Positions 2,834 through 47,883 are shown, numbered from the stretch's first letter. The stretch is 64,000 bases of DNA from Bryobacterales bacterium (GCA_965248255.1 CBDFIW010000001.1:1492-65491); one strand, 5' to 3'. A program made the numbers and translations. The notes: generated by a model from the letters alone, not told the origin.

Positions 2834-3290
2834 TAACGACCGACAGACTGTAGACGATCGAGATCGCCGTCACCGCGACATCGACAGCCACGCCGATCTG
2901 CGTCAGCAGGATTCCCAGAAAGCGGCGCGCCGGCGCGGCCAGGCCCGGAACCTCCAGCTCGGCATAGTTCAGGAACTGCCCGCCGCCGATCAGACATAGT
3001 CCACCGACGGCTGCGAAAATCATCAGTCCCACACCGTCGGCCTTCGTGATTCTCTTTGCCACCATCGTCGGCCGGTCAGTAGGACCGAAGACGAGAATCC
3101 CCAGGATGAGACTCGTCCCCAGCATGACCCCGCCCACAAAGCCGCCCCCCGGGCCGTACTGACCGAAGAAGAGGATGTAGACCGCGAAGATCTGAACCAG
3201 GGGAATGAGTCCCCCGCTCAATCGCCGCACAATAATGCTGTCGTGTGGTGACTCGATCACGTCGTGTCTCTCCTCAGCAGCAGCCAGCAC
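2808..3290 (-). CDS. mrpB: Mrp/Mnh antiporter subunit B
   Basis: Membrane protein with an MnhB-like segment (LIPLVQIFAVYILFFGQYGPGGGFVGG). An alternative GTG start at 3260 overlaps the upstream stop as GTGA. Confidence 0.75.
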   Translation of the reverse strand: MLAAAEERHDVIESPHDSIIVRRLSGGLIPLVQIFAVYILFFGQYGPGGGFVGGVMLGTSLILGILVFGPTDRPTMVAKRITKADGVGLMIFAAVGGLCLIGGGQFLNYAELEVPGLAAPARRFLGILLTQIGVAVDVAVTAISIVYSLSVVSGNGDSHG

Positions 3291-3787
3291 GCGATTCCGG
3301 CCGTGAAAATCACGGCCGTCTCCATCAGGGTGTCGAGGGCGCGGTAATCCATCAGAACGGCGGTTACGACATTCGGGGTCTGCGTGTCAGCGAGGCTGTT
3401 CTCGAGATAAAAAGGCGATACGTGCGTGCTGGCCGGAGACGCCGGATCGCCGAACGCGGCGAGGTCGTTCGCGGCGTAGAGCAACAGCAGCCCAAGAAGG
3501 GGCAGACCCACCACGGCGGCGATGGGCGGCGGCGTACGCCGAATCAAAGTGTCGCGGGGGTCAGTCCCAAACAAAGTCAGGACAAAGAAGACCGTCGCCA
3601 AGCCGGCGCCCACGACTGCCTCGACAAAAGCCACGTCAACCGCTCCGAGCCATGCCCAGACGAGTGCGAGAAAGAAGCTATACGACCCCAGGATGAGGAC
3701 GGCGCTCAGGAGGTCCTTCACGACGATGGCCCCACCCGCCGTCAAGATCAGCAGGACCAGCAAGGGTAATTCGAACGAATACGTCAT
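3257..3787 (-). CDS. MrpA C-terminal/MbhD-like (DUF4040) plus MnhB N-terminal-like subunit
   Basis: 176 aa membrane protein. NVVTAVLMDYRALDTLMETAVIFTAGIA matches the conserved MnhB motif (N.VtaIl.dYRg.DTlgE). It sits between mrpG and mrpB, as in Mbh/Mbx-type modules. Confidence 0.7.
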   Translation of the reverse strand: MTYSFELPLLVLLILTAGGAIVVKDLLSAVLILGSYSFFLALVWAWLGAVDVAFVEAVVGAGLATVFFVLTLFGTDPRDTLIRRTPPPIAAVVGLPLLGLLLLYAANDLAAFGDPASPASTHVSPFYLENSLADTQTPNVVTAVLMDYRALDTLMETAVIFTAGIACWLLLRRDTT

Positions 3788-35793: not shown

Positions 35794-36980
35794 CGCCCCG
35801 CCTTTCTCGGCCGGCCCCTCGGGCGGCGCGGCGCGGGTTCCGATTGCGGCGGCTTGCGGGGCCGGCCCCGGCCGCGCTTGATCTCGCCTGAGCGGACCCG
35901 CCCATCCTCGCGCAACACGGCCTCTCCCTCCATGCGGCGCAGATGCGTTTCGCGCCACAGAGCCAGTTGCCGTGCTTGCTCGATGCTCAGCGGTGCCGGT
36001 TGCTGCTCGGGGTTCCAATCATCCGGCAGCCAGTCGGCCAGATCGTGTTCGAGTGCCTTGAGGAGTTCGCCCGCGGCGGCGTAGACTGACGCGGCATGGA
36101 GATAAAGGGGCCTCGCGGCGGCCGCGAAATTTACCGCGCGTTCCGAACTTCTCTCGCCCAGGTCCGGGGACCGTGGCAGCTCGTCGGCCAAACGGCGGAT
36201 CGCTCCGATCCTCGCCAATGCCTGATCCGACAGCGCCGCGGCTTCCGACCGCGTCCGGGTCACCGAGGCCGGGTATTCCGAGCCCGCCACCGCCACCCCG
36301 TCCATCGACCGCAACTGCCAGTTCTCCTGCTTCAGGCTCTCCACCTGCTTCGCCGCGGTCTCGTTCCGCGCTTCGAGCTTGCGGATGCGGTCCTGCAACA
36401 TCTCGACCGACATGCAATCGAGTGCCGTCGGGTTCCAGCCCTGTTTCGCCGCCTCCTCTAAAACGTCGGGGTCGACGCGGGCCAGCGGCTCCAGCTTCGA
36501 TTGCGGCAGGTTGATCAGCCGCAACTGTTTCGCCACCGGCGTCATCAGCAGCCGCGCGACGAGCATCGCACGCTCCGCGCTGCGGTGCGGAATATGAAGC
36601 TTCCGCAGTAGCGGCAGAAACTCGCCGTGCGGCGTGCGTTCCTTGGCCCACAGCAGGTAATAGCCCCTTCTCACCCTCGACCGGGCTGCGCGGTTCTCCT
36701 CTTCCGCCGCCAGATCCAGCGCCTCGCTCACGTCGGAAGGCTCGACGACATTGAGCTGCTGCCCCAGCGCCCGCAGGCGTTCGGCGATTTCCGCCGCTTC
36801 CGTACCGGCGTAAGGATTTTCGGAGGGGGCAAATGCGCCAAGGTTGGCGCTTTTGGATTTCTCAGATCCGCCAAGATTGGCGTTTTCGGATTCCCTGGGA
36901 GCTTCAAATTCGCCAACTTGGCGAATTTGGTTTTTTGGAGGTTTTTCCGAGACAGGTGAAAGGGGTTGTGCCGCACTCAT
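35790..36980 (-). CDS. DUF3102-like protein with C-terminal AT-hooks
   Basis: GYYLLWAKERTPHGEFLPLLRKLHIPHRSAERAMLVARL resembles DUF3102. The C-terminus has KRGRGRPRK and PRGRPRK. The ATG at 36980 is preferred over the track start. Confidence 0.6.
   Translation of the reverse strand: MSAAQPLSPVSEKPPKNQIRQVGEFEAPRESENANLGGSEKSKSANLGAFAPSENPYAGTEAAEIAERLRALGQQLNVVEPSDVSEALDLAAEEENRAARSRVRRGYYLLWAKERTPHGEFLPLLRKLHIPHRSAERAMLVARLLMTPVAKQLRLINLPQSKLEPLARVDPDVLEEAAKQGWNPTALDCMSVEMLQDRIRKLEARNETAAKQVESLKQENWQLRSMDGVAVAGSEYPASVTRTRSEAAALSDQALARIGAIRRLADELPRSPDLGERSSERAVNFAAAARPLYLHAASVYAAAGELLKALEHDLADWLPDDWNPEQQPAPLSIEQARQLALWRETHLRRMEGEAVLREDGRVRSGEIKRGRGRPRKPPQSEPAPRRPRGRPRKAGR
36830..36930. repeat. 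three ~30-bp direct repeats, each centred on CGCCAA-N1-2-TTGGCG
   Basis: Palindromic cores are at 36835-36850 (GCGCCAAGGTTGGCGC), 36869-36882 (CGCCAAGATTGGCG) and 36910-36924 (TCGCCAACTTGGCGA). Each is followed by a TTTTGGATT-like tail. Confidence 0.7.
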
Positions 36981-37013
36981 CGGACGGCCCCCCTTTCCTC
37001 GGCCCGCTCTTCC

Positions 37014-37036
37014 CCCTTCCCCCGTAGGGGGAAGGG
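37014..37036. repeat. perfect 10-bp stem / 3-nt loop hairpin near the phage-like element end
   Basis: CCCTTCCCCC GTA GGGGGAAGGG. There is no U-tract on either strand. Confidence 0.6.
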
Positions 37037-37047
37037 CCTGGAGGGTG

Positions 37048-38039
37048 TCATGCGGTACAGCCAAATGCGGCCGCCCTGGCCCGCTCGTTCAGCTCGCCGT
37101 AGTCTTTCGGACAGACGTTCGGCAACTCGTGCTGCTTCCAGTAAGCCCAGATGTATTCCACCGGATTCAACTCCGGCGCATAGGGTGGCAAGTACTCGGT
37201 TGCGATGTGGCCTTCGGAGAGTTCGATGAACTCTTGCACCAGGCGGCTACGGTGCGCCGGCAGCCGATCCCAGACGATCAGCAGCGGGCGATCGATATGA
37301 CGTACCAACGCCTTGAGAAAGTCGGTCACTTGCTCTTTGCCGATCGCACCGGGATAGAGCCGGAAGTAGAAGTTACGCAGCGTCAGCCCCGCCGAGACGG
37401 AAAGCTTCTCCCAGTTGAAGTTAAACTGCAGCACCGGTGTTTGGCCACGTGGCGCCCAGGTGCGGCAGCGATGCGGCTTCTGACTCAATCCGCTTTCGTC
37501 GATGAAGACGAGCGTACGGCCTTCGTTTTGGGCTTTTTTTTAATGCGCTTCCAGGTCTTGCGCTTCCAGGTGCGGATCCGCTCTTCGTTGCGCTCGCGCG
37601 CCTTTCCGGCCGGGCGTTGCGGGCTCCAGTCGAGCGCTCGCAGGATCTTCCAGGCGTGGCCTGCGTGGTATGCGACCCCGAACTCGTCTCCGATCAGCCG
37701 AGCCACCCGCGGACAGCTCCACAGGGGCGTTGGGAAGCCGTGGGCTTCCGGGCCTTCCAGCAGCAGCGACGTCAGGCGTTCGCGTTGTGCGGCATCGAGG
37801 AGCGGCTTGCGTCCGGCGCGCCCGGCCTGGCGGAGTCCGGCCGCACCCTGCTCGCGGTATTGCCGCCGCCACTCACTGACGGTTTGGCGAGCGACGTTCA
37901 GCCGTCTCGCCGTCTCGGACTGATTGTGGCCTTGGTGGAGCAGCCGCATCGCTTCGAAACGGCGCTTCTCCAGCGCCTTGAAATCCCGCTTCACACCTTT
38001 GGGGTTGCCCATACATATATAGATGCTCCACACTGTCAA
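37048..38039 (-). pseudogene. IS630-family transposase of copy D, C-terminus replaced
   Basis: The ORFs 37485-38039 and 37048-37488 match copy B except at the end, which reads ...NERARAAAFGCTA* instead of ...NERARKALRRMYRKPRLITAF.... Confidence 0.8.
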
Positions 38040-38067
38040 AAAGTGTCATAATAATTTGCGGGATTCA
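37051..38067 (-). mobile_element. IS630-family copy D, 3'-truncated
   Basis: Nearly identical to copy B, with the T8 slippery run at 37534-37541. The 5' terminal repeat ...GCGGGATTCAA ends at 38067 and is followed by TA. Homology to copy B is lost left of 37051, so about 95 nt including the other terminal repeat is missing. Confidence 0.85.
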
Positions 38068-40006
38068 ATAGGTAGGCCCTCGCAAGCTTTCCCTGTCACA
38101 CCACCGGGCATACGGGTCCCGTACCACGGCGGTTCGGAGGAGTTAAGCGTTCGAAGATGCCGACAATCTGGGAAGGCCGAGCGAATCGAAATAGACATTG
38201 GGCAGCGCTTGCTGGACAGCCGCGTGCCGCGACATGGCCCACAAACCAGTGGCGGAACCGGCGGCAATGGCCGCACGATAATGCGGCACGCCCAATCGCC
38301 GTAGGTTGGCGAATCGGGTCGGCCCATTCCCCCACTGCCGCCAGGTCATCATGCGGAGTCTCCGGCGGATCCGCGCATCCAGGTTGCGAAACACCAGCGG
38401 GTCTTGGCTGAAGCCAAAGTAGCTCCGCCAGCCGAGCAGATACGGCCTCAATGAGCCGATCATCCGCTCAATGCTGATCCCGCGCGTCCTGCTCGTCAGC
38501 TCTCGCACTCGCGCTTGGAACCTTTGCAACGCCTCGGGCGATATCAATCGCTGAGGCTCCGCTCCGGTCGTCAAGCGAAAGCCTAAGAACTTCCGATCGT
38601 TGGGTCGAGCCACCGCACTCTTCGATTTGTTGACCTTGAGTCGGAGTTTCTTTGTAAGAAACTTACAGACGCCGGCCATCACCCGTTCCCCCGCCCTGCG
38701 ACTGCGAACGTAGATGTTACAGTCGCCGGCGTAGCGGCAGAAGCGATGGCCGCGCCGTTCCAACTCGCGATCCAAATCGCCGAGCACGAGGTTCGACAAC
38801 AACGGCGACAACGGTCCGCCTTGTGGCGTGCCTTCGTCGGCAGGACTCACCAGCCCGTCGTCCATCACCCCGACGGTTAGAAACGCCCGGATGAGTTTCA
38901 GCAATCGCTTGTCGGGGACACGTTTGGCGACACGAGCCATCAGCAGGTCATGGTTGACTCGATCGAAGAACTTCTCCAGATCGATGTCTACGACCCACTG
39001 ATAGCCTGCGGCGACGTAGGCTTGCGCCTGAGTCACCGCCTGATGCGCCGAACGTCCCGGTCGGAAGCCATAGCTGTTGTTGGAAAACGTCGGGTCCCAG
39101 CGCTTCTGCAGAACCTGCAAGACCGCTTGCTGGATCAGTCGGTCGAGCACCGTAGGGATGCCCAACTTCCTGACCCCGCCGCCGGGCTTCGGGATTTCCA
39201 CCCTGCGCACCGGTTGCGGTTTGTACGTTCCTTGAAGCAACTGTTCCCGGATGGCTGGCCAGTGCTTGCGAAGGTCGTCCAGCGTTTCGTCGATGGTCTT
39301 GCCATCAACACCCGGACTCCCTTTGTTACCCCGAACTTGTTTCCAAGCCTTTACGAGATTGCTTCGCTCGCACACCTCCTCCATCAGTCGTTCTTCTCGC
39401 GTCGGGCTTTCAGATTCCCGCTTCACCGCGGACGGTTCGGTCCCTTGCCGAGCGCGCCTCGGGGCTTCACCCTTTGGCTCGTCCATGAAGGCCAGTCGTT
39501 GCTGGGTTTTCTGCCGCTTGCCGTCCATGAGTTGCGAGTCTTACTTGCCGCTCTCTTCCGTTCGGGCCTTCGGCCATCGTTCTCGGTTCGGCCTATCTGT
39601 TGGCTCCGTTTTTCGACTTGTGGAGTGCCTTACTAGCCTTGCCGACTGCATGGCCTACTATGCCCTCTGCTGACTTCTGCGCCCCGATCAGGTCGCCTCG
39701 CGGCTCCCCCAGTCCCAAACAGCGGGACGGAACGCAGACCTCCCGGGGTAAGTCTGACCGCCTTCGCCGCACACCTGCCGAATCTACAGCCTTGGCCCTT
39801 GATGGAACTGGACTTCGCGATCAGTTGTCCGCTCGTCCGACCAAAGATGCCTCTTATCCGGTTTCTGTTCGTCAGGTCGCGGTTTTGTTCCACGCTTCCT
39901 CTGGACCCCGCCTCGCGACGACGCCCTTGCGCTTCCCTAGCACTTCACCTCCATCAGGCTGTGCAGAGGACTTTCACCTCCAAGCTGTCAGACATGCCCG
40001 GCACAC
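38068..40006 (-). mobile_element. group II intron, copy 1 (ribozyme + intron-encoded protein)
   Basis: The 5' end is GTGTGCCGGG... and the 3' end is ...GCGAGGGCCTACCTAT. A domain V-like hairpin, CCGCCGTGGTACGGGACCCGTATGCCCGGTGG, lies downstream of the ORF. Boundaries were set by where the two copies diverge. Confidence 0.85.
38143..39528 (-). CDS. group II intron reverse transcriptase/maturase (no En domain)
   Basis: 461 aa with RT motifs RPGRSAHQA, VVDIDLEKFFD, PQGGPLSPLLSN and RYAGDCNIYV. A maturase X-like region follows (LRPYLLGWRSYFGF). Confidence 0.9.
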   Translation of the reverse strand: MDGKRQKTQQRLAFMDEPKGEAPRRARQGTEPSAVKRESESPTREERLMEEVCERSNLVKAWKQVRGNKGSPGVDGKTIDETLDDLRKHWPAIREQLLQGTYKPQPVRRVEIPKPGGGVRKLGIPTVLDRLIQQAVLQVLQKRWDPTFSNNSYGFRPGRSAHQAVTQAQAYVAAGYQWVVDIDLEKFFDRVNHDLLMARVAKRVPDKRLLKLIRAFLTVGVMDDGLVSPADEGTPQGGPLSPLLSNLVLGDLDRELERRGHRFCRYAGDCNIYVRSRRAGERVMAGVCKFLTKKLRLKVNKSKSAVARPNDRKFLGFRLTTGAEPQRLISPEALQRFQARVRELTSRTRGISIERMIGSLRPYLLGWRSYFGFSQDPLVFRNLDARIRRRLRMMTWRQWGNGPTRFANLRRLGVPHYRAAIAAGSATGLWAMSRHAAVQQALPNVYFDSLGLPRLSASSNA

Positions 40007-40420
40007 AACCAAGACGGCGAGGGCGCCGTCGGCGGGCAAACCTGTATTGCGAAAGCGTTCCGCGGTCGCTCGCCGACCCGACCAACCCGAGCCGTCAATG
40101 CAGGTGACTTTGCCGGTCTCGGCCTCGTAGTACATGATCAGCAGGTGGCCCCCGATGCCGGCACGGTGCGGCTCGACAACAGTACTGGCGAAAGTCGCCG
40201 CAACGCCCGCGTCGAGGGCATTCCCCCCTTGTTCCAACATGCGGTATCCCGCCATAGCAGTGGCATAGTGGCCAGCGGCAACCATGTGCTTCTTTCCCAA
40301 AATGACGGGACGCCAGGTTCGACTCTGTGCCACCAGGGTCGACTGCAGAAGGATAAAACCGATGGCGATCACCGCCGAGTAGTGGAGTGGCGGGCGAGGT
40401 CTCCTATTCATCTGGTTCAC
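40007..40420 (-). pseudogene. ggt: gamma-glutamyltransferase, N-terminal fragment ending at the intron 5' junction
   Basis: Signal-like N-terminus, then AAGHYATAMAGYRMLEQGGNALDAGVAATFASTVVEPHRAGIGGHLLIMYY...IDGSGW, typical of the GGT family. The rest of the gene (catalytic Thr region) is not found in the window. Confidence 0.75.
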
Positions 40421-40752
40421 TCCGCGTTAGCGTCCATGGGCACTTCCACATCCAACAAGGGTGCATACTGCTGCGCGCCGAACATATCCGGGTCCCCAGG
40501 GCCACCGGTAGACTGCTCACGGTAAATGGTGAACTTGATGGCAAATGCGGGTGCGAACTCGACAAAATCGGAAATGCGTTCTTGCGGAATACCATAGAGT
40601 CGGGCCACCGACTCACGCGTGAGGACTTGGCTGTCTCTCACCAGATCGTAAGTCTCTTTGTCGGTGAAAATGACGTCGAAGGTGATCTTGTCGACTCCGG
40701 CGTTCTTGCTGCGGATGGTCTTTGCCAAATCCGACAGTTTCTTACTAGGCAT
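40417..40752 (-). CDS. DUF4387 domain protein (AtuA-associated)
   Basis: 111 aa. LSDLAKTIRSKNAGVDKITFDVIFTDKETYDLV...FAIKFTI matches my recollection of the DUF4387 family. It follows the AtuA-like gene. Confidence 0.65.
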   Translation of the reverse strand: MPSKKLSDLAKTIRSKNAGVDKITFDVIFTDKETYDLVRDSQVLTRESVARLYGIPQERISDFVEFAPAFAIKFTIYREQSTGGPGDPDMFGAQQYAPLLDVEVPMDANAE

Positions 40753-40762
40753 GGCGACTTCC

Positions 40763-42137
40763 TTATTCCCCGGCCTCGGTCATATGTACGGGAAACAGTT
40801 CCAGGGGATCGTCGACGCGCAAGGTGTGACTCATGGTCCAGCGGTAGGCAGGCTTGCCCGGAAGTACCTCGTTCAATCCAAGGACCGCCACCATACCGGC
40901 CGTACCCTTGGACTCCGGTATCCGGGCGTAAAAGGTCTGGCGGGTGGCGATTCCGCAGACCTCTTCGGCCATCTCCTTGGTGGGGGCAATGCCCTGAATC
41001 ACTAGACAGACCTCGTGGGATCTGGTTTTGCACGGCTCGAGATTGCCCATCACAGCATCCCTGCCGTAGACGTGGAAGAAGAGCTGATAGCCTTCATCGC
41101 CGAACTTCTCTCGCACGTGAGCCCTGCACCACTCGATCATCTTGTCCACGTTAGCGATCGTATCTGGGTCACGGATGCCGACGATCCCGACGTAGCGCTC
41201 ACCGACCTTGCCGGATCCTTCCAGTTTCACTCGAAACTCAGTGGCCGGTCTGAATTCGGGCCCCGTGACTCGAGTCGTCTTCTCGTCGTAACTGCTCGTA
41301 GCGGCACTGCCTCATGTCTAGGACCCCGCCGGCGACGTGCTCGTAGTAGGGATCGGCACGCTCATACATGGCGTGCCCAGCGACCGAGGCCACAGTGCAG
41401 CGCTGCTCAGGATGCATCGCGGTCACTTTCACGTCTTGCATCGAGACTTCCCCGATGACACTCTCCTTCCCTCCATAGGGTTCGGCGCAGAAGGAGGCGC
41501 ACTCGAGGACCTTGCCCAAGTAGTAGGGGAAGCTCTCGGGGAACCCGGCCCGGATTGCAGGAGCGGCAAAGATCGCATTATCGCTGCCTCGGCCGCCGAT
41601 GATCACGTCGGCCCCTAGGTCCAGTAGCTTCATGTAGGGATGAACCCCCGCAAGGGCCACAATGCGGTCCGTCATCTCGATATCCTGCAAAGTCAGTTCG
41701 GATCGGCCGTGGAGGCCTTCAATCGCTCCGCCTTGGTGCAGCTTCTTGCGTAGTGAGTCCTTCTCGACCTCGGAGTAGAAGTAGCCGAGCCTGAAACCGG
41801 ACAGCTTATGCTTCGCCGCCAGATCCTTGATGATCCCAACGTAGAGGTCCACGCGGCTGTTGGCGCCGGTGTCTCCGGCCGATCCGATGATCATGGGCAC
41901 TCCTACGCTGCGGGAGGCCAGGAGCATCTGCTCAAGATCTTGCGTTTGGCTGTCCAGCGGACTGCACGAGGTGTCGCTACCCAGCAGCACCGGGCCAATA
42001 TCATCGCTTCCCGAATCCGCCACTATGAAATCCGGATTCATCTCCACTCCTCGCCGGAAGCTGTCGATCTTGAATGGAGTGTAGCCGAGGTGCCCAGTAG
42101 GACAGAGGAATCGCTTAGTCGTGTTCTTCACCGTCAT
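40763..42137 (-). pseudogene. AtuA-like (DUF1446) acyclic terpene utilisation family protein, frameshifted
   Basis: The N-terminal ORF is 41238-42167 and the C-terminal ORF is 40763-41230. The frame of the downstream ORF is open upstream as ...SYDEKTTRVTGPEFRPATEFRVKLEGSGK. That indicates a 1-nt frameshift near 41290. Confidence 0.7.
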
Positions 42138-42594
42138 TCTTCTTTGGGGCCGGCCCGTACACAGCATAGTACCTCACGACCGGAGCAAGCCAAGAGAGTG
42201 AGAATGCAATTTGAGCGACGCCTGAGACGACGCCCACCGGGCCTATTTCCACAATTTTCCACAATAAAGGGCATGTCCGGGATTGCCTAGGTTGAGATCC
42301 TACTGCTCTTTCCGCTATGCAGTCGGTGGTGGACATCCCGATCGCAGGCTGTTTCAGATCGTGAAGAACTCTGTCGTCCGAGTTGCGTATCGTCCGCATT
42401 CGCTCTTGTAGTGCGAATCGCGAAAGGCGGCATGCGGCGTCTTGGGCCACACTGACTCGACCGTAGACTCCGCCTGCACCAAGCTAGTCGCGAACTGATG
42501 TGCGATCGCAACGCGTGGGTTGAGAGCTCAATCGGCAACCCGGATTGGTTCTTGCTTGCAGACGATCGGACCCAGGCGCCCGGGTGAATGCACA

Positions 42595-43990
42595 CTACTC
42601 GGAGTCACCCTCATCCGCACTGACCACTTCGGCTTCTCTTTCGCGGAGCTGGTCGGGCGGCCGAGCGAACCAGCCGATCAGGTATTTCGACAACAGCAGA
42701 CAGGCGCAACAAGCGATCGACAGCGATACGACCGTCCCCCCGATGTAGTCCCGGATGATCAGCTGCGGGACGACGACGATCACGCCGATCGAGACAAGAG
42801 ACATTCCCAGATAGGCGATGCCGAAATCCTCCAACGTCTTCGATCGGAACTTCGGGTCTACGATGCGCAGCAGAGAAATTCCCACGGCGATCACGCCGGT
42901 GTTCCAACCGTAGGTGAATAGACTCCGCTCCAGCCAGAAATTCCGGAAAATCTTTCTACCGACAAACCAGAAGAAGGCAACAGAGTAGACAAGACCAAAA
43001 AGGCACATCACGGCGAGTGGGAGTGCGTATTCCATTACGACCTTGATCTTGATCGAAGCGATCGCGAAGGCTACGAGATAGTCCGACGCTGTCGAACCGA
43101 TCCGTTCCATGACACGAGGGTCTACAAAGATTCCCAGGCCTAACCCGTCCAAGGTTTTTTGGATCAGAGCTCCTGCGAGCATGGCGATCGCGAAAAGCGG
43201 CAGGACGAAGTTTTCGGGTAGCACAGATGCGACTAGATCGTTCGCCAGGTGGGCCAGGCCGAAGGCCGCGAGGACTAGAGCAATGTGCCAAGCAAGGGGG
43301 TCGATCGCAATTGGACTTACCGTTTCCTGGCCGAGCGGTCTTCTCTGGTGTGGCGGGAGGAATCCCTTTCGGATGCTTTCTGGTAGTTCGTGAGGGGTCT
43401 TGACAAGCCGGGTCCAGCCCCGTTTTGTCGCCACGTTGATGATAAGAATCCCGCCAACAACGCCGCTCAGCAGACCGACCGTGGAGAAGGTGTAAGCGAT
43501 GGTCAAAGCATCTTTCCAACCGGCCTCTTGCAGGACTTGGCCGATGGCAGTGGCCGTGCCGTGCCCTCCAGCAAAGCCAGCAGGCAGGAGAAGAGCGAAG
43601 CCCACGTCGAGGTCCGGGAAGAGAGTTCGCAGTAGGAACATCCCGAGCAGCAGCGCCGCGGCATATTGCCTGATCTCGCTGGCGACGTTGTAGAAGAATG
43701 TGTCCCCCCGCGCGGCGAATAAGATGACCGCCCGAACCCTCTCTCGCCCCCATGAACAGTGTGCCGAACAGGAGCGCCACCAGAAACGATCGATAGGCAT
43801 CGAGCGCGAGGTTTCCGCTGGACGTTTCCTGGAACGGAATCAGACCGAGATTCCGGGTGCTTCCAATGAGGCCAATGAACCCGGCCAGCATCGCCGAGGG
43901 CAGGTAGATCCGCTGCAGGAAAGCTGACCACGACCGCAAGACGTGGGCCAGGATCAACAAGAGCGACATGAGCGCGAAATCGAGGACCAT
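42595..43990 (-). pseudogene. gltS: sodium/glutamate symporter (GltS/ESS family)-like, frameshifted
   Basis: The N-terminal 85 or so codons are in the frame of 42956-43990 and the remainder in the frame of 42595-43800. The switch is best placed at the 7-nt C/G homopolymer at 43702-43708 (...LIRRAGG | DTFFYNVASE...). Confidence 0.65.
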
Positions 43991-44246
43991 ATTGAGTCAG
44001 GACTAGGATCGATTCTACTGTTTCCGTCATGCCGATCAGACGGCATCTTGCCTCGAATCCCATCCGGCGCGGCCACAGATCCTCTTTCTAGGCCAGGGTC
44101 TACGCTGCGCTCTGCGCGATTAGTGACGCGAACCTTAGGACCGTATCGACCGTGCGGCGGGCGAACAGCGGTGGAAAGAGGGGGTGTCAGCGGGTGCCGC
44201 CGCATTGTCGATAGAGGTTATAGGAGGAAGCCGGGCTCAGGCCTGG

Positions 44247-44747
44247 CTATGTGGATTGTAGGGGTTTGCTCGGTCGTCGGACAGCAGGAGGAGGACCTTT
44301 CGTGAGTCGAACGGGGCTTGGATCGCCCGGATTGCTCTGATGTGTGGAAGCAAGGAAGTCCTCGAAGACGGGCGAATCAGCCCCACAGAAAGACGCAGGG
44401 CGCGGCAGTGCTAAGCGCCTCCTTGCGGCCAGGGCCCGCGGCACGGTGAACACGACATGGCAGTAACGCACGGGAAGCAGTTCCTTGGCCCGTGCGGCCA
44501 GCCAGCGGTCGCGCGCCGCCGACTGACACTTCGGGCAGTGTCGGTTGCAGCACGAGTTGTAAGCGATCCGTTCGGCCGAGCAAGAATCGCACTGTTCGAT
44601 GTGAGCGCCCTGGGCGGCGCTGCGACACGAGCCGATGTCGCGAAGGGTCTTGCGTTGGCGGCTGGAGAGACGGTGTCCCCAGCGTTTGAGCAACTCCCCT
44701 TCGTGTTGGTGAATGACAGCGGCCACTTCCAGCCGATGGCGGCTCAT
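44247..44747 (-). pseudogene. IS91-family transposase, N-terminal zinc-binding fragment only
   Basis: CRSAAQGAHIEQCDSCSAERIAYNSCCNRHCPKCQSAARDRWLAARAKELLPVRYCHVVFTVP is typical of the IS91 N-terminal domain. Similarity is lost after this point and the HUH/Y catalytic part is absent. Confidence 0.75.
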
Positions 44748-45619
44748 CGCCGGCGGCCATCACCGTCGTGAGTGAGTCCCTCACGAATCTCGAGTTCTTC
44801 CAAAGGACTCGTGATCCCCTGCGGGCGCGGTTCTGCGACATGCAGATACCGCGCCGTCGTCTTGAGGCTGACGTGCCCTAGCAAGACCTGGATGGTGCGC
44901 AGATCCGTTCCCGCTTCGAGCAGATGTGTGGCGAACGAATGTCGCGGGATGTGCGGCGTCGCCGGCTTGCGGATACCCGCCTTGCGGCCGAGCTTTTGGC
45001 AGATCTGCCGCACCCCCGAGGGGCGCAGCTTGGCGCCGCGCATACGCCCCGGAAACAACAACTCGTTCGGCTTCGCCCAGCGCCAGTACAGACGCAGCAA
45101 CTCCAGTAGCTTCGGTGACAGCATCACCTGCCGAGGCTTCTGTCCTTTGCCACGGCGCACCAGGATCACCATCCGCTCCGAGTCAATGTCGCCCGGTTCG
45201 AGCTGCAACACTTCGTCGAGACGCAACCCGGCTCCGTAGAACACTCCCAGGATCGCGCGATGCTTCAGATTCACCGTCTCGTCCAGCAGCACCGTCACTT
45301 CTTCGCGGCTGAGCACGACGGGGACTCGACGCCGGATCTTGGGTCGAGCGATCCGTTCGACAACCCAAGGTTGCTGGAGTGTTTGGCTGTAGAAGAACTT
45401 CAGCGCCGCCGTGCGCACCCCGAACGTCGATCCTGCGAGTTGACGCTGCTCGATCAAGTACAGTTGATACTCGCGAATCTGCTCCGGGCCCAGTTGCTCC
45501 GGCGACTGGCCGAAATAGCGGGCGAAATCCTCAACGGCCTTGGTATAGCTGCGCATCGTCTGCGGCGAGTAGTTGCGCCACCGCAGGTCTTCGATCATCC
45601 TCTGACGTAGCTTGGTCAT
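44744..45619 (-). CDS. tyrosine recombinase/integrase (IS91-associated type)
   Basis: 291 aa with an N-terminal SAM-like domain. The catalytic context is GAGLRLDEV...[38 protein letters not shown] (R...HxxR...Y). It has a 4-nt overlap with the IS91 fragment. Confidence 0.85.
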
Positions 45620-45725
45620 GAACGACCTCCTTTCGGTCGCTCCTTGTTGCGCTACCTCAACAAAGCCTCAATACCTCCCCCCTGCAGGCCCTCCCCTCAC
45701 CTCTGCCGCGCATAGCGGCTTGGTT

Positions 45726-47665
45726 GTGTGCCGGGCATGTCTGACAGCTTGGAGGTGAAAGTCCTCTGCACAGCCTGATGGAGGTGAAGTGCTAGGGAAG
45801 CGCAAGGGCGTCGTCGCGAGGCGGGGTCCAGAGGAAGCGTGGAACAAAACCGCGACCTGACGAACAGAAACCGGATAAGAGGCATCTTTGGTCGGACGAG
45901 CGGACAACTGATCGCGAAGTCCAGTTCCATCAAGGGCCAAGGCTGTAGATTCGGCAGGTGTGCGGCGAAGGCGGTCAGACTTACCCCGGGAGGTCTGCGT
46001 TCCGTCCCGCTGTTTGGGACTGGGGGGAGCCGCGAGGCGACCTGATCGGGGCGCAGAAGTCAGCAGAGGGCATAGTAGGCCATGCAGTCGGCAAGGCTAG
46101 TAAGGCACTCCACAAGTCGAAAGACGGAGCCAACAGATAGGCCGAACCGAGAACGATGGCCGAAGGCCCGAACGGAAGAGAGCGGCAAGTAAGACTCGCA
46201 ACTCATGGACGGCAAGCGGCAGAAAACCCAGCAACGACTGGCCTTCATGGACGAGCCAAAGGGTGAAGCCCCGAGGCGCGCTCGGCAAGGGACCGAACCG
46301 TCCGCGGTGAAGCGGGAATCTGAAAGCGCGGCGCGAGAAGAACGACTGATGGAGGAGGTGTGCGAGCGAAGCAATCCCGTAAAGGCTTGGAAACAAGTTC
46401 GGGGTAACAAAGGGAGTCCGGGTGTTGATGGCAAGACCATCGACGAAACGCTGGACGACCTTCGCAAGCACTGGCCAGCCATCCGGGAACAGTTGCTTCA
46501 AGGAACGTACAAACCGCAACCGGTGCGCAGGGTGGAAATCCCGAAGCCCGGCGGCGGGGTCAGGAAGTTGGGCATCCCTACGGTGCTCGACCGACTGATC
46601 CAGCAAGCGGTCTTGCAGGTTCTGCAGAAGCGCTGGGACCCGACGTTTTCCAACAACAGCTATGGCTTCCGACCGGGACGTTCGGCGCATCAGGCGGTGA
46701 CTCAGGCGCAAGCCTACGTCGCCGCAGGCTATCAGTGGGTCGTAGACATCGATCTGGAGAAGTTCTTCGATCGAGTCAACCATGACCTGCTGATGGCTCG
46801 TGTCGCCAAACGTGTCCCCGACAAGCGATTGCTGAAACTCATCCGGGCGTTTCTAACCGTCGGGGTGATGGACGACGGGCTGGTGAGTCCTGCCGACGAA
46901 GGCACGCCACAAGGCGGACCGTTGTCGCCGTTGTTGTCGAACCTCGTGCTCGGCGATTTGGATCGCGAGTTGGAACGGCGCGGCCATCGCTTCTGCCGCT
47001 ACGCCGGCGACTGTAACATCTACGTTCGCAGTCGCAGGGCGGGGGAACGGGTGATGGCCGGCGTCTGTAAGTTTCTTACAAAGAAACTCCGACTCAAGGT
47101 CAACAAATCGAAGAGTGCGGTGGCTCGACCCAACGATCGGAAGTTCTTAGGCTTTCGCTTGACGACCGGAGCGGAGCCTCAGCGATTGATATCGCCCGAG
47201 GCGTTGCAAAGGTTCCAAGCGCGAGTGCGAGAGCTGACGAGCAGGACGCGCGGGATCAGCATTGAGCGGATGATCGGCTCATTGAGGCCGTATCTGCTCG
47301 GCTGGCGGAGCTACTTTGGCTTCAGCCAAGACCCGCTGGTGTTTCGCAACCTGGATGCGCGGATCCGCCGGAGACTCCGCATGATGACCTGGCGGCAGTG
47401 GGGGAATGGGCCGACCCGATTCGCCAACCTACGGCGATTGGGCGTGCCGCATTATCGTGCGGCCATTGCCGCCGGTTCCGCCACTGGTTTGTGGGCCATG
47501 TCGCGGCACGCGGCTGTCCAGCAAGCGCTGCCCAATGTCTATTTCGATTCGCTCGGCCTTCCCAGATTGTCGGCATCTTCGAACGCTTAACTCCTCCGAA
47601 CCGCCGTGGTACGGGACCCGTATGCCCGGTGGTGTGACAGGGAAAGCTTGCGAGGGCCTACCTAT
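45726..47665 (+). mobile_element. group II intron, copy 2
   Basis: Same termini as copy 1. It is 1 nt longer because of a G6 versus G5 run in the 5' region. It is in inverted orientation relative to copy 1. Confidence 0.85.
46205..47590 (+). CDS. group II intron reverse transcriptase/maturase
   Basis: 461 aa. It differs from copy 1 at three residues in the N-terminal region (SESAARE vs SESPTRE; SNPVKAW vs SNLVKAW). Confidence 0.9.
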   Translation: MDGKRQKTQQRLAFMDEPKGEAPRRARQGTEPSAVKRESESAAREERLMEEVCERSNPVKAWKQVRGNKGSPGVDGKTIDETLDDLRKHWPAIREQLLQGTYKPQPVRRVEIPKPGGGVRKLGIPTVLDRLIQQAVLQVLQKRWDPTFSNNSYGFRPGRSAHQAVTQAQAYVAAGYQWVVDIDLEKFFDRVNHDLLMARVAKRVPDKRLLKLIRAFLTVGVMDDGLVSPADEGTPQGGPLSPLLSNLVLGDLDRELERRGHRFCRYAGDCNIYVRSRRAGERVMAGVCKFLTKKLRLKVNKSKSAVARPNDRKFLGFRLTTGAEPQRLISPEALQRFQARVRELTSRTRGISIERMIGSLRPYLLGWRSYFGFSQDPLVFRNLDARIRRRLRMMTWRQWGNGPTRFANLRRLGVPHYRAAIAAGSATGLWAMSRHAAVQQALPNVYFDSLGLPRLSASSNA

Positions 47666-47883
47666 GTCGATCAACAACCCTTTCGTTGAGCTATCCGGTC
47701 GTAGCACCGCCAGGCCCTTGAGGTGGGGCCGTTTTGCGACTACTCCGACAACCTTCTGAGGGCTTCAGGTGGACGATAGATGATGGTGTAAACGCGATAC
47801 CCGATATTACCCGACATCTATCCTCGGACTCACGGTTTCGGGCCTGATAGGGATCGTCGAAACCTATGCTGACTGTTGAAAGG

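Follow-up and report, generated by a model that had tools for sequence, protein, structure and literature searches.

Two inverted group II introns at the locus

We analysed a stretch of 64,000 nucleotides from a Bryobacterales bacterium (GCA_965248255.1, CBDFIW010000001.1:1492-65491; hereafter the window, with positions counted from its first letter), in which two near-identical group II introns, copy A and copy B, lie in inverted orientation around a segment of 5.7 kb (Table 1). Judging from the assembled sequence, the first catalytic aspartate of the intron-encoded reverse transcriptase (RT) is replaced by glycine in every copy of this intron in which the motif can be scored, so that the canonical YADD reads YAGD.

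The presence of two such introns, proposed in a preliminary description of the window, is supported by Rfam matches at gathering level in both copies (group-II-D1D4-3 at 122.4 bits, and group-II-D1D4-1; the D1-D4 models score 122 and 37 bits), by repeat arms that pair 38068-39710 with 46023-47665 and 39706-40016 with 45716-46026, and by 99.7% identity between the copies. In a pairwise alignment the copies differ by four substitutions and by one indel in a run of five or six G residues, and three of the substitutions alter the protein (A42P, A43T and P58L, all within the N-terminal 60 aa), as described earlier. Both 461-aa open reading frames (ORFs) read FCRYAGDCNIYV, and the YAGD reported for the two proteins is encoded at both loci. 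The intervening segment has the gene content originally named for it, since Pfam recovers a G_glu_transpept fragment, DUF4387, AtuA, Glt_symporter, Zn_Tnp_IS91 and Phage_integrase.

The 3' boundary required correction. We took the 5' end of copy B from the alignment of copies A and B, and 15 of 15 genome copies, together with relatives, set its 3' end; this moves the end from 47665, as first given, 6 nt further on to 47671 (...CCTATGTCGAT). All 15 intact 3' ends in the genome (8.0 Mb, four contigs) carry GTCGAT and diverge only beyond it, relatives in other genomes end in ...CCUAU(G/C)(U/C)CGAU, and at contig 4:1258694 a second intron begins immediately after GTCGAT. Assignment of GTCGAT to the exon was rejected, as a second intron abuts it and an empty related end of an insertion sequence (IS) of the IS91 family reads hairpin-TTCGTT-CAAACGG without it. 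Since these observations agree, we place the intron at 45726-47671, with a length of 1946 nt.

Homology between the two copies stops at CCTA(T) because an IS630-type element entered the TA of CCTA|TGTCGAT in copy A, giving the junction CCTA-[TTGAATCCC...]. The ends of this element, TTGA...TCAA with a TA duplication, are seen within another intron copy as TTCT-TA-[TTGA...TCAA]-TA-GGC. The family name IS630 is a label from earlier annotation, with which the TA insertion and TA duplication agree. The 1094-bp element matches 246 segments of the genome (E-value of 1e-10 or better), the 40 best at 99.9-100% identity, and it interrupts three intron copies. The 7 nt that copy A lacks were not found beyond the element within 36700-38080. 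Copy A is thus dead, because its 3' splice site is lost together with part of domain VI, and copy B is structurally complete.

Table 1. Features of the intron pair and its surroundings in the window (EBS1, exon-binding site 1; IBS1, intron-binding site 1; ggt, gamma-glutamyltranspeptidase gene).
Feature	Position	Strand	Remarks
IS630-type element	37078..38068	-	first ~990 of 1094 bp; truncates copy A at its 3' end; transposase ORFs 37048-37488 and 37485-38039
Intron copy A	38069..40006	-	last 7 nt absent; IS630-type insertion at TA
Copy A intron-encoded protein	38143..39528	-	461 aa; 3 residues unlike copy B
Copy A YAGD codons	38733-38722	-	TAC GCC GGC GAC
Copy A domain I EBS1 loop	39821-39828	-	equivalent of the copy B loop ACAACTGA
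Segment between the inverted copies	40007..45725	.	contains both 5' exons
Copy A 5' exon signal	40007..40030	-	in ggt coding sequence; hairpin GACGGCG-CCCT-CGCCGTC + IBS1 TTGGTT
ggt, 5' part	40007..40420	-	Pfam positions 2-81
Truncated IS91-family unit (F1)	44136..45725	-	integrase 44744-45619; Zn_Tnp_IS91 fragment 44247-44747; its end bears the copy B homing hairpin
Copy B 5' exon signal	45705..45725	+	hairpin GCCGC-GCATA-GCGGC (45705-45719) + IBS1 TTGGTT (45720-45725)
Intron copy B	45726..47671	+	structurally complete; 1946 nt, GTGTG to GTCGAT; Rfam RF02001 at 45810-45980, RF01998 at 46022-46081
Copy B domain I loop ACAACTGA with EBS1 AACUGA	45904..45911	+	covariation with the 5' exon in relatives
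Copy B intron-encoded protein	46205..47590	+	461 aa; RVT_1 and GIIM, no endonuclease domain (Pfam)
Copy B YAGD codons	47000-47011	+	TAC GCC GGC GAC
Copy B domain V	47601..47632	+	RNAalifold, 27 sequences: 12 pairs, one compensatory (14/24 AU -> GC in 10 sequences)
Copy B domain VI	47636..47668	+	A47664 bulged, 7 nt from the intron's 3' end; compensatory changes at columns 40/72 and 41/71

A young intron family that carries YAGD throughout

The element had been described as present twice; the genome holds 18 copies at 99.7-100% identity, of which 13 cover positions 1-1940, two are interrupted by the IS630-type element and three are truncated. YAGD is found in 17 of the 17 copies that span the motif. 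The discovery of further copies with YADD, named beforehand as an outcome that would count against the description, thus did not occur within the family, and the additional copies obey the same rule at their 5' ends. An intact YADD in RT block 5, by which an autonomously mobile retroelement is recognised, is present in none of the 17, and in alignments the glycine lies opposite the first Asp of YADD in 6AR1 (GsI-IIC RT) and 7UIM. The ORF is intact in all 13 full-length copies.

Two more distant sequences in the same genome indicate the direction of the change. An 88% identical fragment (contig 2:660180) reads ADDCNIYV, and a 75% identical paralogue (contig 4:1258694) with an intact 462-aa ORF (contig 4:1259159-1260547) reads YADD. 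Since both retain (Y)ADD, the glycine is derived, by a single transition from GAC to GGC at intron positions 1281-1283.

One alternative is a false call: GGC would then have arisen in the assembly or base calling of a long-read metagenome-assembled genome, in place of a real GAC. The copies do differ in a homopolymer (the G5/G6 run), and the exact protein is absent from a collection of 15 billion proteins, so that no independent assembly agrees. However, the change is a substitution and not a homopolymer indel, 17 loci that were assembled separately and differ in haplotype all show it, and the 88% identical fragment was called A in the same context (identical over the 6 preceding and 20 following bases). 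Variants with YAGD or YAAD moreover occur in nature elsewhere. We consider an artefact exceedingly improbable on these grounds, chiefly because a substitution is seen at so many loci with different haplotypes and the same context was called A in the fragment.

Apart from the motif, 12 sites vary among the copies, six of them in the ORF (four non-synonymous and two synonymous). Sites 398 and 652 occur in all four combinations, so that the four-gamete test fails and the copies recombine. Across the family there are about 14 distinct 3' flanks and at least 10 distinct 5' junctions.

Recombination has also rearranged a host gene. The intron copy at contig 3:2175937 has an IS91-type end as its 5' exon, and positions 84-506 of the ggt domain begin right behind this copy. 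The ggt frame is continuous over the junction between the two parts (...AVLV | PGAVEAL...), and a full-length paralogue matches both of them in the same order. The sequence beyond copy B was considered as a candidate continuation of ggt, but frame translation and inspection rejected this; the continuation lies on contig 3. Because the halves of ggt flank different intron copies and the frame runs on, the arrangement indicates that an intron once lay in ggt and that a later exchange between two intron copies parted the halves, which now lie on contigs 1 and 3. Intron copies of 1.9 kb thus reshape this genome, with one gene split between two contigs.

At contig 4:1255654-1260640 an IS630-interrupted YAGD copy is followed, with zero bases between, by the YADD paralogue, at an IS91-type end. 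The later intron evidently used the 5' exon of the resident one and landed in front of it. The first 103 nt of the paralogue (positions 3195-3297 of this locus, L026, against 45726-45828 of the window) show one difference from the YAGD family, against about 75% identity elsewhere, which suggests gene conversion or template switching at the 5' end of the RNA.

Exchange of this kind raises the question of whether a YADD master made the burst of copies and a later D-to-G change was carried to all of them by gene conversion, leaving a family of immobile relics. The recombinant sites 398 and 652, the converted-looking start of the paralogue and the exchanged ggt halves all show that the material for such a process exists. 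Unbiased conversion would nevertheless need to have fixed a single site, since all 17 scorable copies carry G and the 12 other sites are still polymorphic. We regard this history as unlikely; that the founder of the burst already carried G is the simpler reading of a fixed G among polymorphic sites.

Intron class and RNA structure

Several features assign the family to class C (IIC), the protein by the ranking of its Protein Data Bank (PDB) matches and by its domain content. The ORF lies in domain IV, and in its product Pfam finds the RT domain RVT_1 (E-value 1.1e-39) and the maturase (X) domain GIIM (5.3e-19) and no third domain. The closest PDB matches are IIC enzymes, namely 6AR1 (GsI-IIC RT, E-value 4e-140 over residues 48-456) followed by 7UIM, 5HHJ and 5HHL, with IIB and IIA proteins far lower. 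The ribozyme is small, with about 560 nt outside the ORF. The intron begins with GTGTG at 45726, matching the 5' consensus GUGYG, and ends with ...CCUA*UGUCGAU, matching the 3' consensus AY. Domain V begins C-CGC-CGUG, and CGC instead of AGC as its catalytic triad is a mark of class C.

The lack of domains V and VI had been named as an outcome that would speak against a group II intron, but both are supported by covariation. RNAalifold applied to 27 distinct 3' ends gives 23 pairs in domains V and VI together, and six of these pairs show compensatory changes. Folded singly, the last 78 nt did not surpass shuffled sequences (z -0.33), and we did not draw on that fold.

Insertion after a hairpin followed by IBS1

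The seven letters CTTGGTT that precede both copies, in flanks said to be otherwise unrelated, had been interpreted as a shared homing requirement. This stands for TTGGTT, which is IBS1 and pairs with EBS1 AACUGA in the domain I loop. It is incomplete as a target, because a hairpin belongs to it as well: both flanks bear one that ends directly before TTGGTT, and the leading C is the last base of its stem. Class C introns insert right after a DNA stem-loop and not at a homing site of 20-35 bp, as stated in PMC4424553, and a hairpin plus short IBS1 is reported as class C targeting (PMC4424553; PMC1702495), which is why we divide CTTGGTT into a stem base and IBS1.

The rule extends to the whole family, whose 17 5' ends fall into 10 distinct flank types with at least five unrelated hairpin sequences. 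At each of the 10 distinct 5' junctions a hairpin of -10.3 kcal/mol or lower is separated by 0-2 nt from the final six bases of the exon, whereas 3.85% of 2000 random GGTT sites fold at -10.3 kcal/mol or better. In class C introns the exons are recognised through EBS1-IBS1 and EBS3-IBS3, and EBS2 is absent. Upstream of the hairpin we saw no conservation among the junctions, and the first base of the 3' exon is C in 11 of 15 copies. The six exon bases UUGGUU, CCAGUU and CCGGUU that occur in the family pair with AACUGA.

Relatives show the two partners changing together. All six positions pair here, in the genomes G010 (the sister family described below), G019 and G021, and in one copy of G005, with changes on both sides: loop and exon read GACGAA/UUCGUC in G010, AACGAA/UUCGUU in G019 and GACUGA/UUAGUC in G005. 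Extraction of the EBS1/IBS1 pattern fitted 27 of 80 loci collected from species genomes, the other 53 being left out; over 25 distinct junctions the mean pairing is 5.04 of 6, against 4.19 in shuffles (shuffle maximum 4.6). In one parsed locus (L074) only 2 of 6 bases pair, and its 5' end may be wrong. Another candidate for EBS1, AACCGG near intron position 145, was set aside: the Rfam model places it in a stem, and it is loop ACAACTGA that covaries with the exon.

Two further sites bear on target choice. A truncated family copy (contig 2:41881-42255, intron positions 1-376) follows the exon TTCGTC, which suits the EBS1 GACGAA of G010 and not the AACUGA of the family; it may be the relic of an earlier intron that was replaced through recombination. 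A REP-like perfect palindrome (repetitive extragenic palindrome), GGCACGGCATGCCGTGCC, usually lies between CCTACAT and its complement and occurs in well over a hundred copies in the genome (e.g. contig 4:1268341); one copy with CGGTT after it carries the intron.

A home inside the ends of IS91-family elements

Ten family copies share long 5' flanks that define three units, F1 (three copies), F2 (three) and F3 (four), and each of the ten sits some 25 nt in from the end of an IS91-family element. The IS91 family is marked by a Y2 HUH transposase whose N-terminal domain binds zinc, and F2 and F3 accordingly have a Phage_integrase gene upstream, Zn_Tnp_IS91, and Y2_Tnp at E-values of 4e-64 and 9e-65; the F1 unit of the window keeps just the Zn domain and the integrase. 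This F1 unit, beside copy B, has three copies in the genome, with the intron in each. The intron lies on the strand opposite the integrase, about 100 nt upstream of its start. Every F1-F3 copy in which that end is intact is occupied (10 of 10), one F3 copy being without the end.

The 24-26 nt past the insertion point are alike at several loci here and in G010, G019 and G021, and this conservation between loci and genomes places the homing site inside the element. An integrase gene upstream on the opposite strand is found at 11 of the 80 loci, in genomes of Vicinamibacterales, Alphaproteobacteria and Planctomycetota, so that the apparent tie of this intron clade to the ends of integrase-carrying IS91-family elements spans several phyla. 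Among the 15 listed of 27 papers that hold both terms, no title or abstract mentions the link. From the full occupancy and the position of the intron we infer that IS91-type transposition could copy it without RT activity; with ten copies inside IS91-family ends, the introns were perhaps duplicated together with their carriers.

At contig 3:1246740-1246880 two IS91-type ends lie tail to tail, one bearing the intron and the other an empty variant hairpin (GCCGCGCGAGCGGC+TTCGTT). The empty end belongs to a 93% relative and is the only unoccupied site seen.

Relatives and a sister family without the first aspartate

YAGD is absent among the 120 best database proteins, which comprise 113 with YADD, 5 with YAAD, 1 with FADD and 1 with YGDD. 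Among the 80 loci from species genomes, 73 read YADD, 1 FADD and 6 YAAD, and YADD is retained by further multicopy families of the wider clade. A close relative of the intron is present in 6 of 77 species genomes of the host family and in none of three other genomes of the host genus. When metagenomes were scanned with a pattern of 35 nt spanning the codon, six contigs were returned, all with the A allele; as these are only 67-74% identical to the intron, they neither confirm nor refute YAGD.

All six YAAD loci belong to G010, the Bryobacterales metagenome-assembled genome CBDBHI01, and form a sister family with an 84% identical protein. Its six copies are identical over 1945 nt, lie behind three kinds of 5' flank, and keep the rule of hairpin and IBS1. 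Database members of this cluster, 99% alike, read YAAD in eight sequences and YTAD in five, and a 96% relative reads YADD. Within G010 itself we found no close YADD relative, its other RT matches being at most 42% identical.

A second loss of the same residue could mean that mobility in this clade is independent of the intron's own polymerase site, the RNA being copied, once it has reverse-spliced into single-stranded hairpin DNA, by a host enzyme, by a distant RT or through replication linked to IS91 rolling-circle intermediates, so that an intron could bear the loss of the first Asp or even profit from it. The apparently independent loss in G010 in a family that has reached three kinds of flank, the alternation of YAAD and YTAD at 99% identity beside a YADD relative at 96%, the lack of a close YADD relative in G010 and the 13 intact ORFs in the present family are all in keeping with this. 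Nonetheless, families of the wider clade keep YADD almost throughout the loci surveyed, and both families are too young for their intact ORFs to reveal selection (four non-synonymous and two synonymous sites here). We know of no precedent for RT-independent retromobility of an intron that lacks the endonuclease, and this explanation seems to us rather unlikely.

Probable mechanism of multiplication

Immobile intron derivatives are thought not to persist. The explanation that we favour, with a probability of roughly 70%, is that this is a young family of 18 IIC introns with a derived YAGD, which spread with IS91-family elements and by rare retrotransposition. In a Bryobacterales-like host rich in insertion sequences, the intron RNA recognises a DNA hairpin and then 5-6 nt that pair with the domain I loop (EBS1 AACUGA with IBS1 UUGGUU). 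Its usual home is some 25 nt inside one end of an integrase-carrying IS91-family element, and copies lying there would be duplicated as the elements transpose, with no need for the RT. Look-alike hairpins that arise by chance would occasionally be invaded as well, as at ggt, the REP-like palindrome and two terminator-like hairpins. These sites, at least four and mutually unrelated, imply that reverse splicing and synthesis of complementary DNA (cDNA) would still be needed. We suggest that rare reverse splicing at new hairpins is followed by cDNA synthesis through residual activity of the YAGD enzyme or through the single intact YADD paralogue acting in trans. Once inserted, the 1.9-kb copies serve as substrates for homologous recombination, as at the split ggt.

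Residual activity is plausible in the light of an earlier study. The expectation in the preliminary description that an Asp-to-Gly change would cripple reverse transcription is corroborated by the Thermosynechococcus elongatus intron TeI4h, in which YAGD strongly lowers mobility (PMC2882425). The native YAGD form is reported to have a mobility of 2.5e-5 % at 37 C and 6.7e-2 % at 48 C, and restoration of YADD raises this to 3.4% and 100%, respectively, a gain of about 10^5-fold at 37 C; the authors count YAGD among the mutations that impair retromobility (PMC2882425). YAGD is thus likely to be strongly attenuating and not null, as is already in print for TeI4h (PMC2882425).

Several points weigh against the combination of carriage by IS91-family elements and rare retrotransposition. 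The mobility figures come from a cyanobacterial IIB intron and not from the IIC protein studied here, and at least 10 distinct 5' junctions and about 14 3' flanks are many for an enzyme impaired 10^3 to 10^5-fold. The YADD paralogue is no more than a putative helper, because its protein is only 61% identical to that of the family and its RNA differs around the ORF start codon, the region expected to bind the protein. The YAAD family in G010 multiplied in an assembly without a close YADD relative. Co-transposition with IS91-family elements is deduced from occupancy (10 of 10) and position, and most of the IS91-linked introns are followed by unrelated DNA in place of the IS end, which requires additional recombination. 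Finally, the Rfam model of domains V and VI (RF00029) gave no match within 45600-47800 even at an E-value of 1.

Comparison with known introns

TeI4h, described by Mohr, Ghanem and Lambowitz in 2010 (PMC2882425), resembles the present intron in its natural YAGD in RT block 5, and also in belonging to a proliferated lineage (28 copies in the genome) whose members insert into other mobile elements and can be mobilised in trans. It differs in its IIB (CL-type) class and its long homing site, and in being a single defective copy among YADD relatives (PMC2882425), whereas the present intron is IIC and has YAGD in all of its scorable copies. YAGD is therefore not unprecedented; what differs here is that a whole family carries it.

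GsI-IIC, B.h.I1 and the Eubacterium rectale intron (PDB entries 6AR1 and 7UIM) share with the family, as far as these entries and the literature on them indicate, the lack of an endonuclease domain, the small ribozyme and the hairpin with short IBS1. In contrast to these, the target here is neither a U-tract terminator nor attC but a subterminal hairpin of IS91-family elements followed by TTGGTT, and the RT active site is altered. Degenerate proteins are described as rare in bacterial introns, with O.i.I2 of Oceanobacillus iheyensis named in that paper as the only known case (PMC4424553). Like the present intron, O.i.I2 is bacterial and retains an open ORF although YADD is not intact in its protein, but it is reported as a lone ML-class copy within radC with several motifs gone, whereas one residue has changed here, in a multicopy family. 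The nearest counterpart is the sister family in G010, which shares the 84% identical protein, the rule of hairpin and IBS1 (UUCGUC/GACGAA), the multicopy state and the loss of the first Asp, and which differs in having Asp replaced by Ala (Thr in related assemblies) and in its EBS1.

A broader proposition would be that loss of the first Asp has not stopped the multiplication of a IIC lineage resident in IS91-family ends, and that this has occurred twice independently, as YAGD here and as YAAD and then YTAD in the sister genus. We consider this doubtful. If it were true, the protein would serve just as a maturase and integration factor, and DNA would be copied by IS91 rolling-circle replication, by a helper RT or by a host polymerase. 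A young family with 17 scorable copies and a sister family that has lost the same residue provide a natural test bed for the questions of how much RT activity is needed for spread, whether a helper RT or a carrier transposon can substitute for it, and whether attenuation aids persistence in the host.

The inverted pair and minor observations

As inverted repeats, copies A and B could mechanically permit inversion of the 5.7-kb segment between them, and the pair might then act as a functional switch that flips this segment. Repeats of 1.94 kb at 99.7% identity are suited to such a role, and copies of the family have recombined elsewhere in the genome. Yet the pair is merely two of 18 scattered copies, with copy A derived from an ectopic insertion in ggt and copy B at the standard site in an IS91 end; the genes between them look partly broken, the AtuA and symporter genes each being divided into two ORFs; and there is no sign of regulated inversion. 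A switch is accordingly very improbable.

The AtuA-like gene (window 40763-42167) is divided into two separate ORFs and the Glt-symporter-like gene (42595-43990) into overlapping ORFs in two frames, and these splits may be frameshifts or assembly indels. The G5/G6 run at intron position 297 (window 46022-46027) divides the family 10 to 7 and only partly tracks the other variants; part of this division may be base-calling error at a homopolymer in a long-read assembly.

The G010 assembly is very rich in group II-type RTs, with 35 RT matches (E-value of 1e-5 or better) that include a 529-aa open frame at no fewer than 12 places. In the database protein P0001 (707 aa), a relative of the intron protein, most of the RT domain is duplicated internally in tandem, so that it has two YADD blocks.

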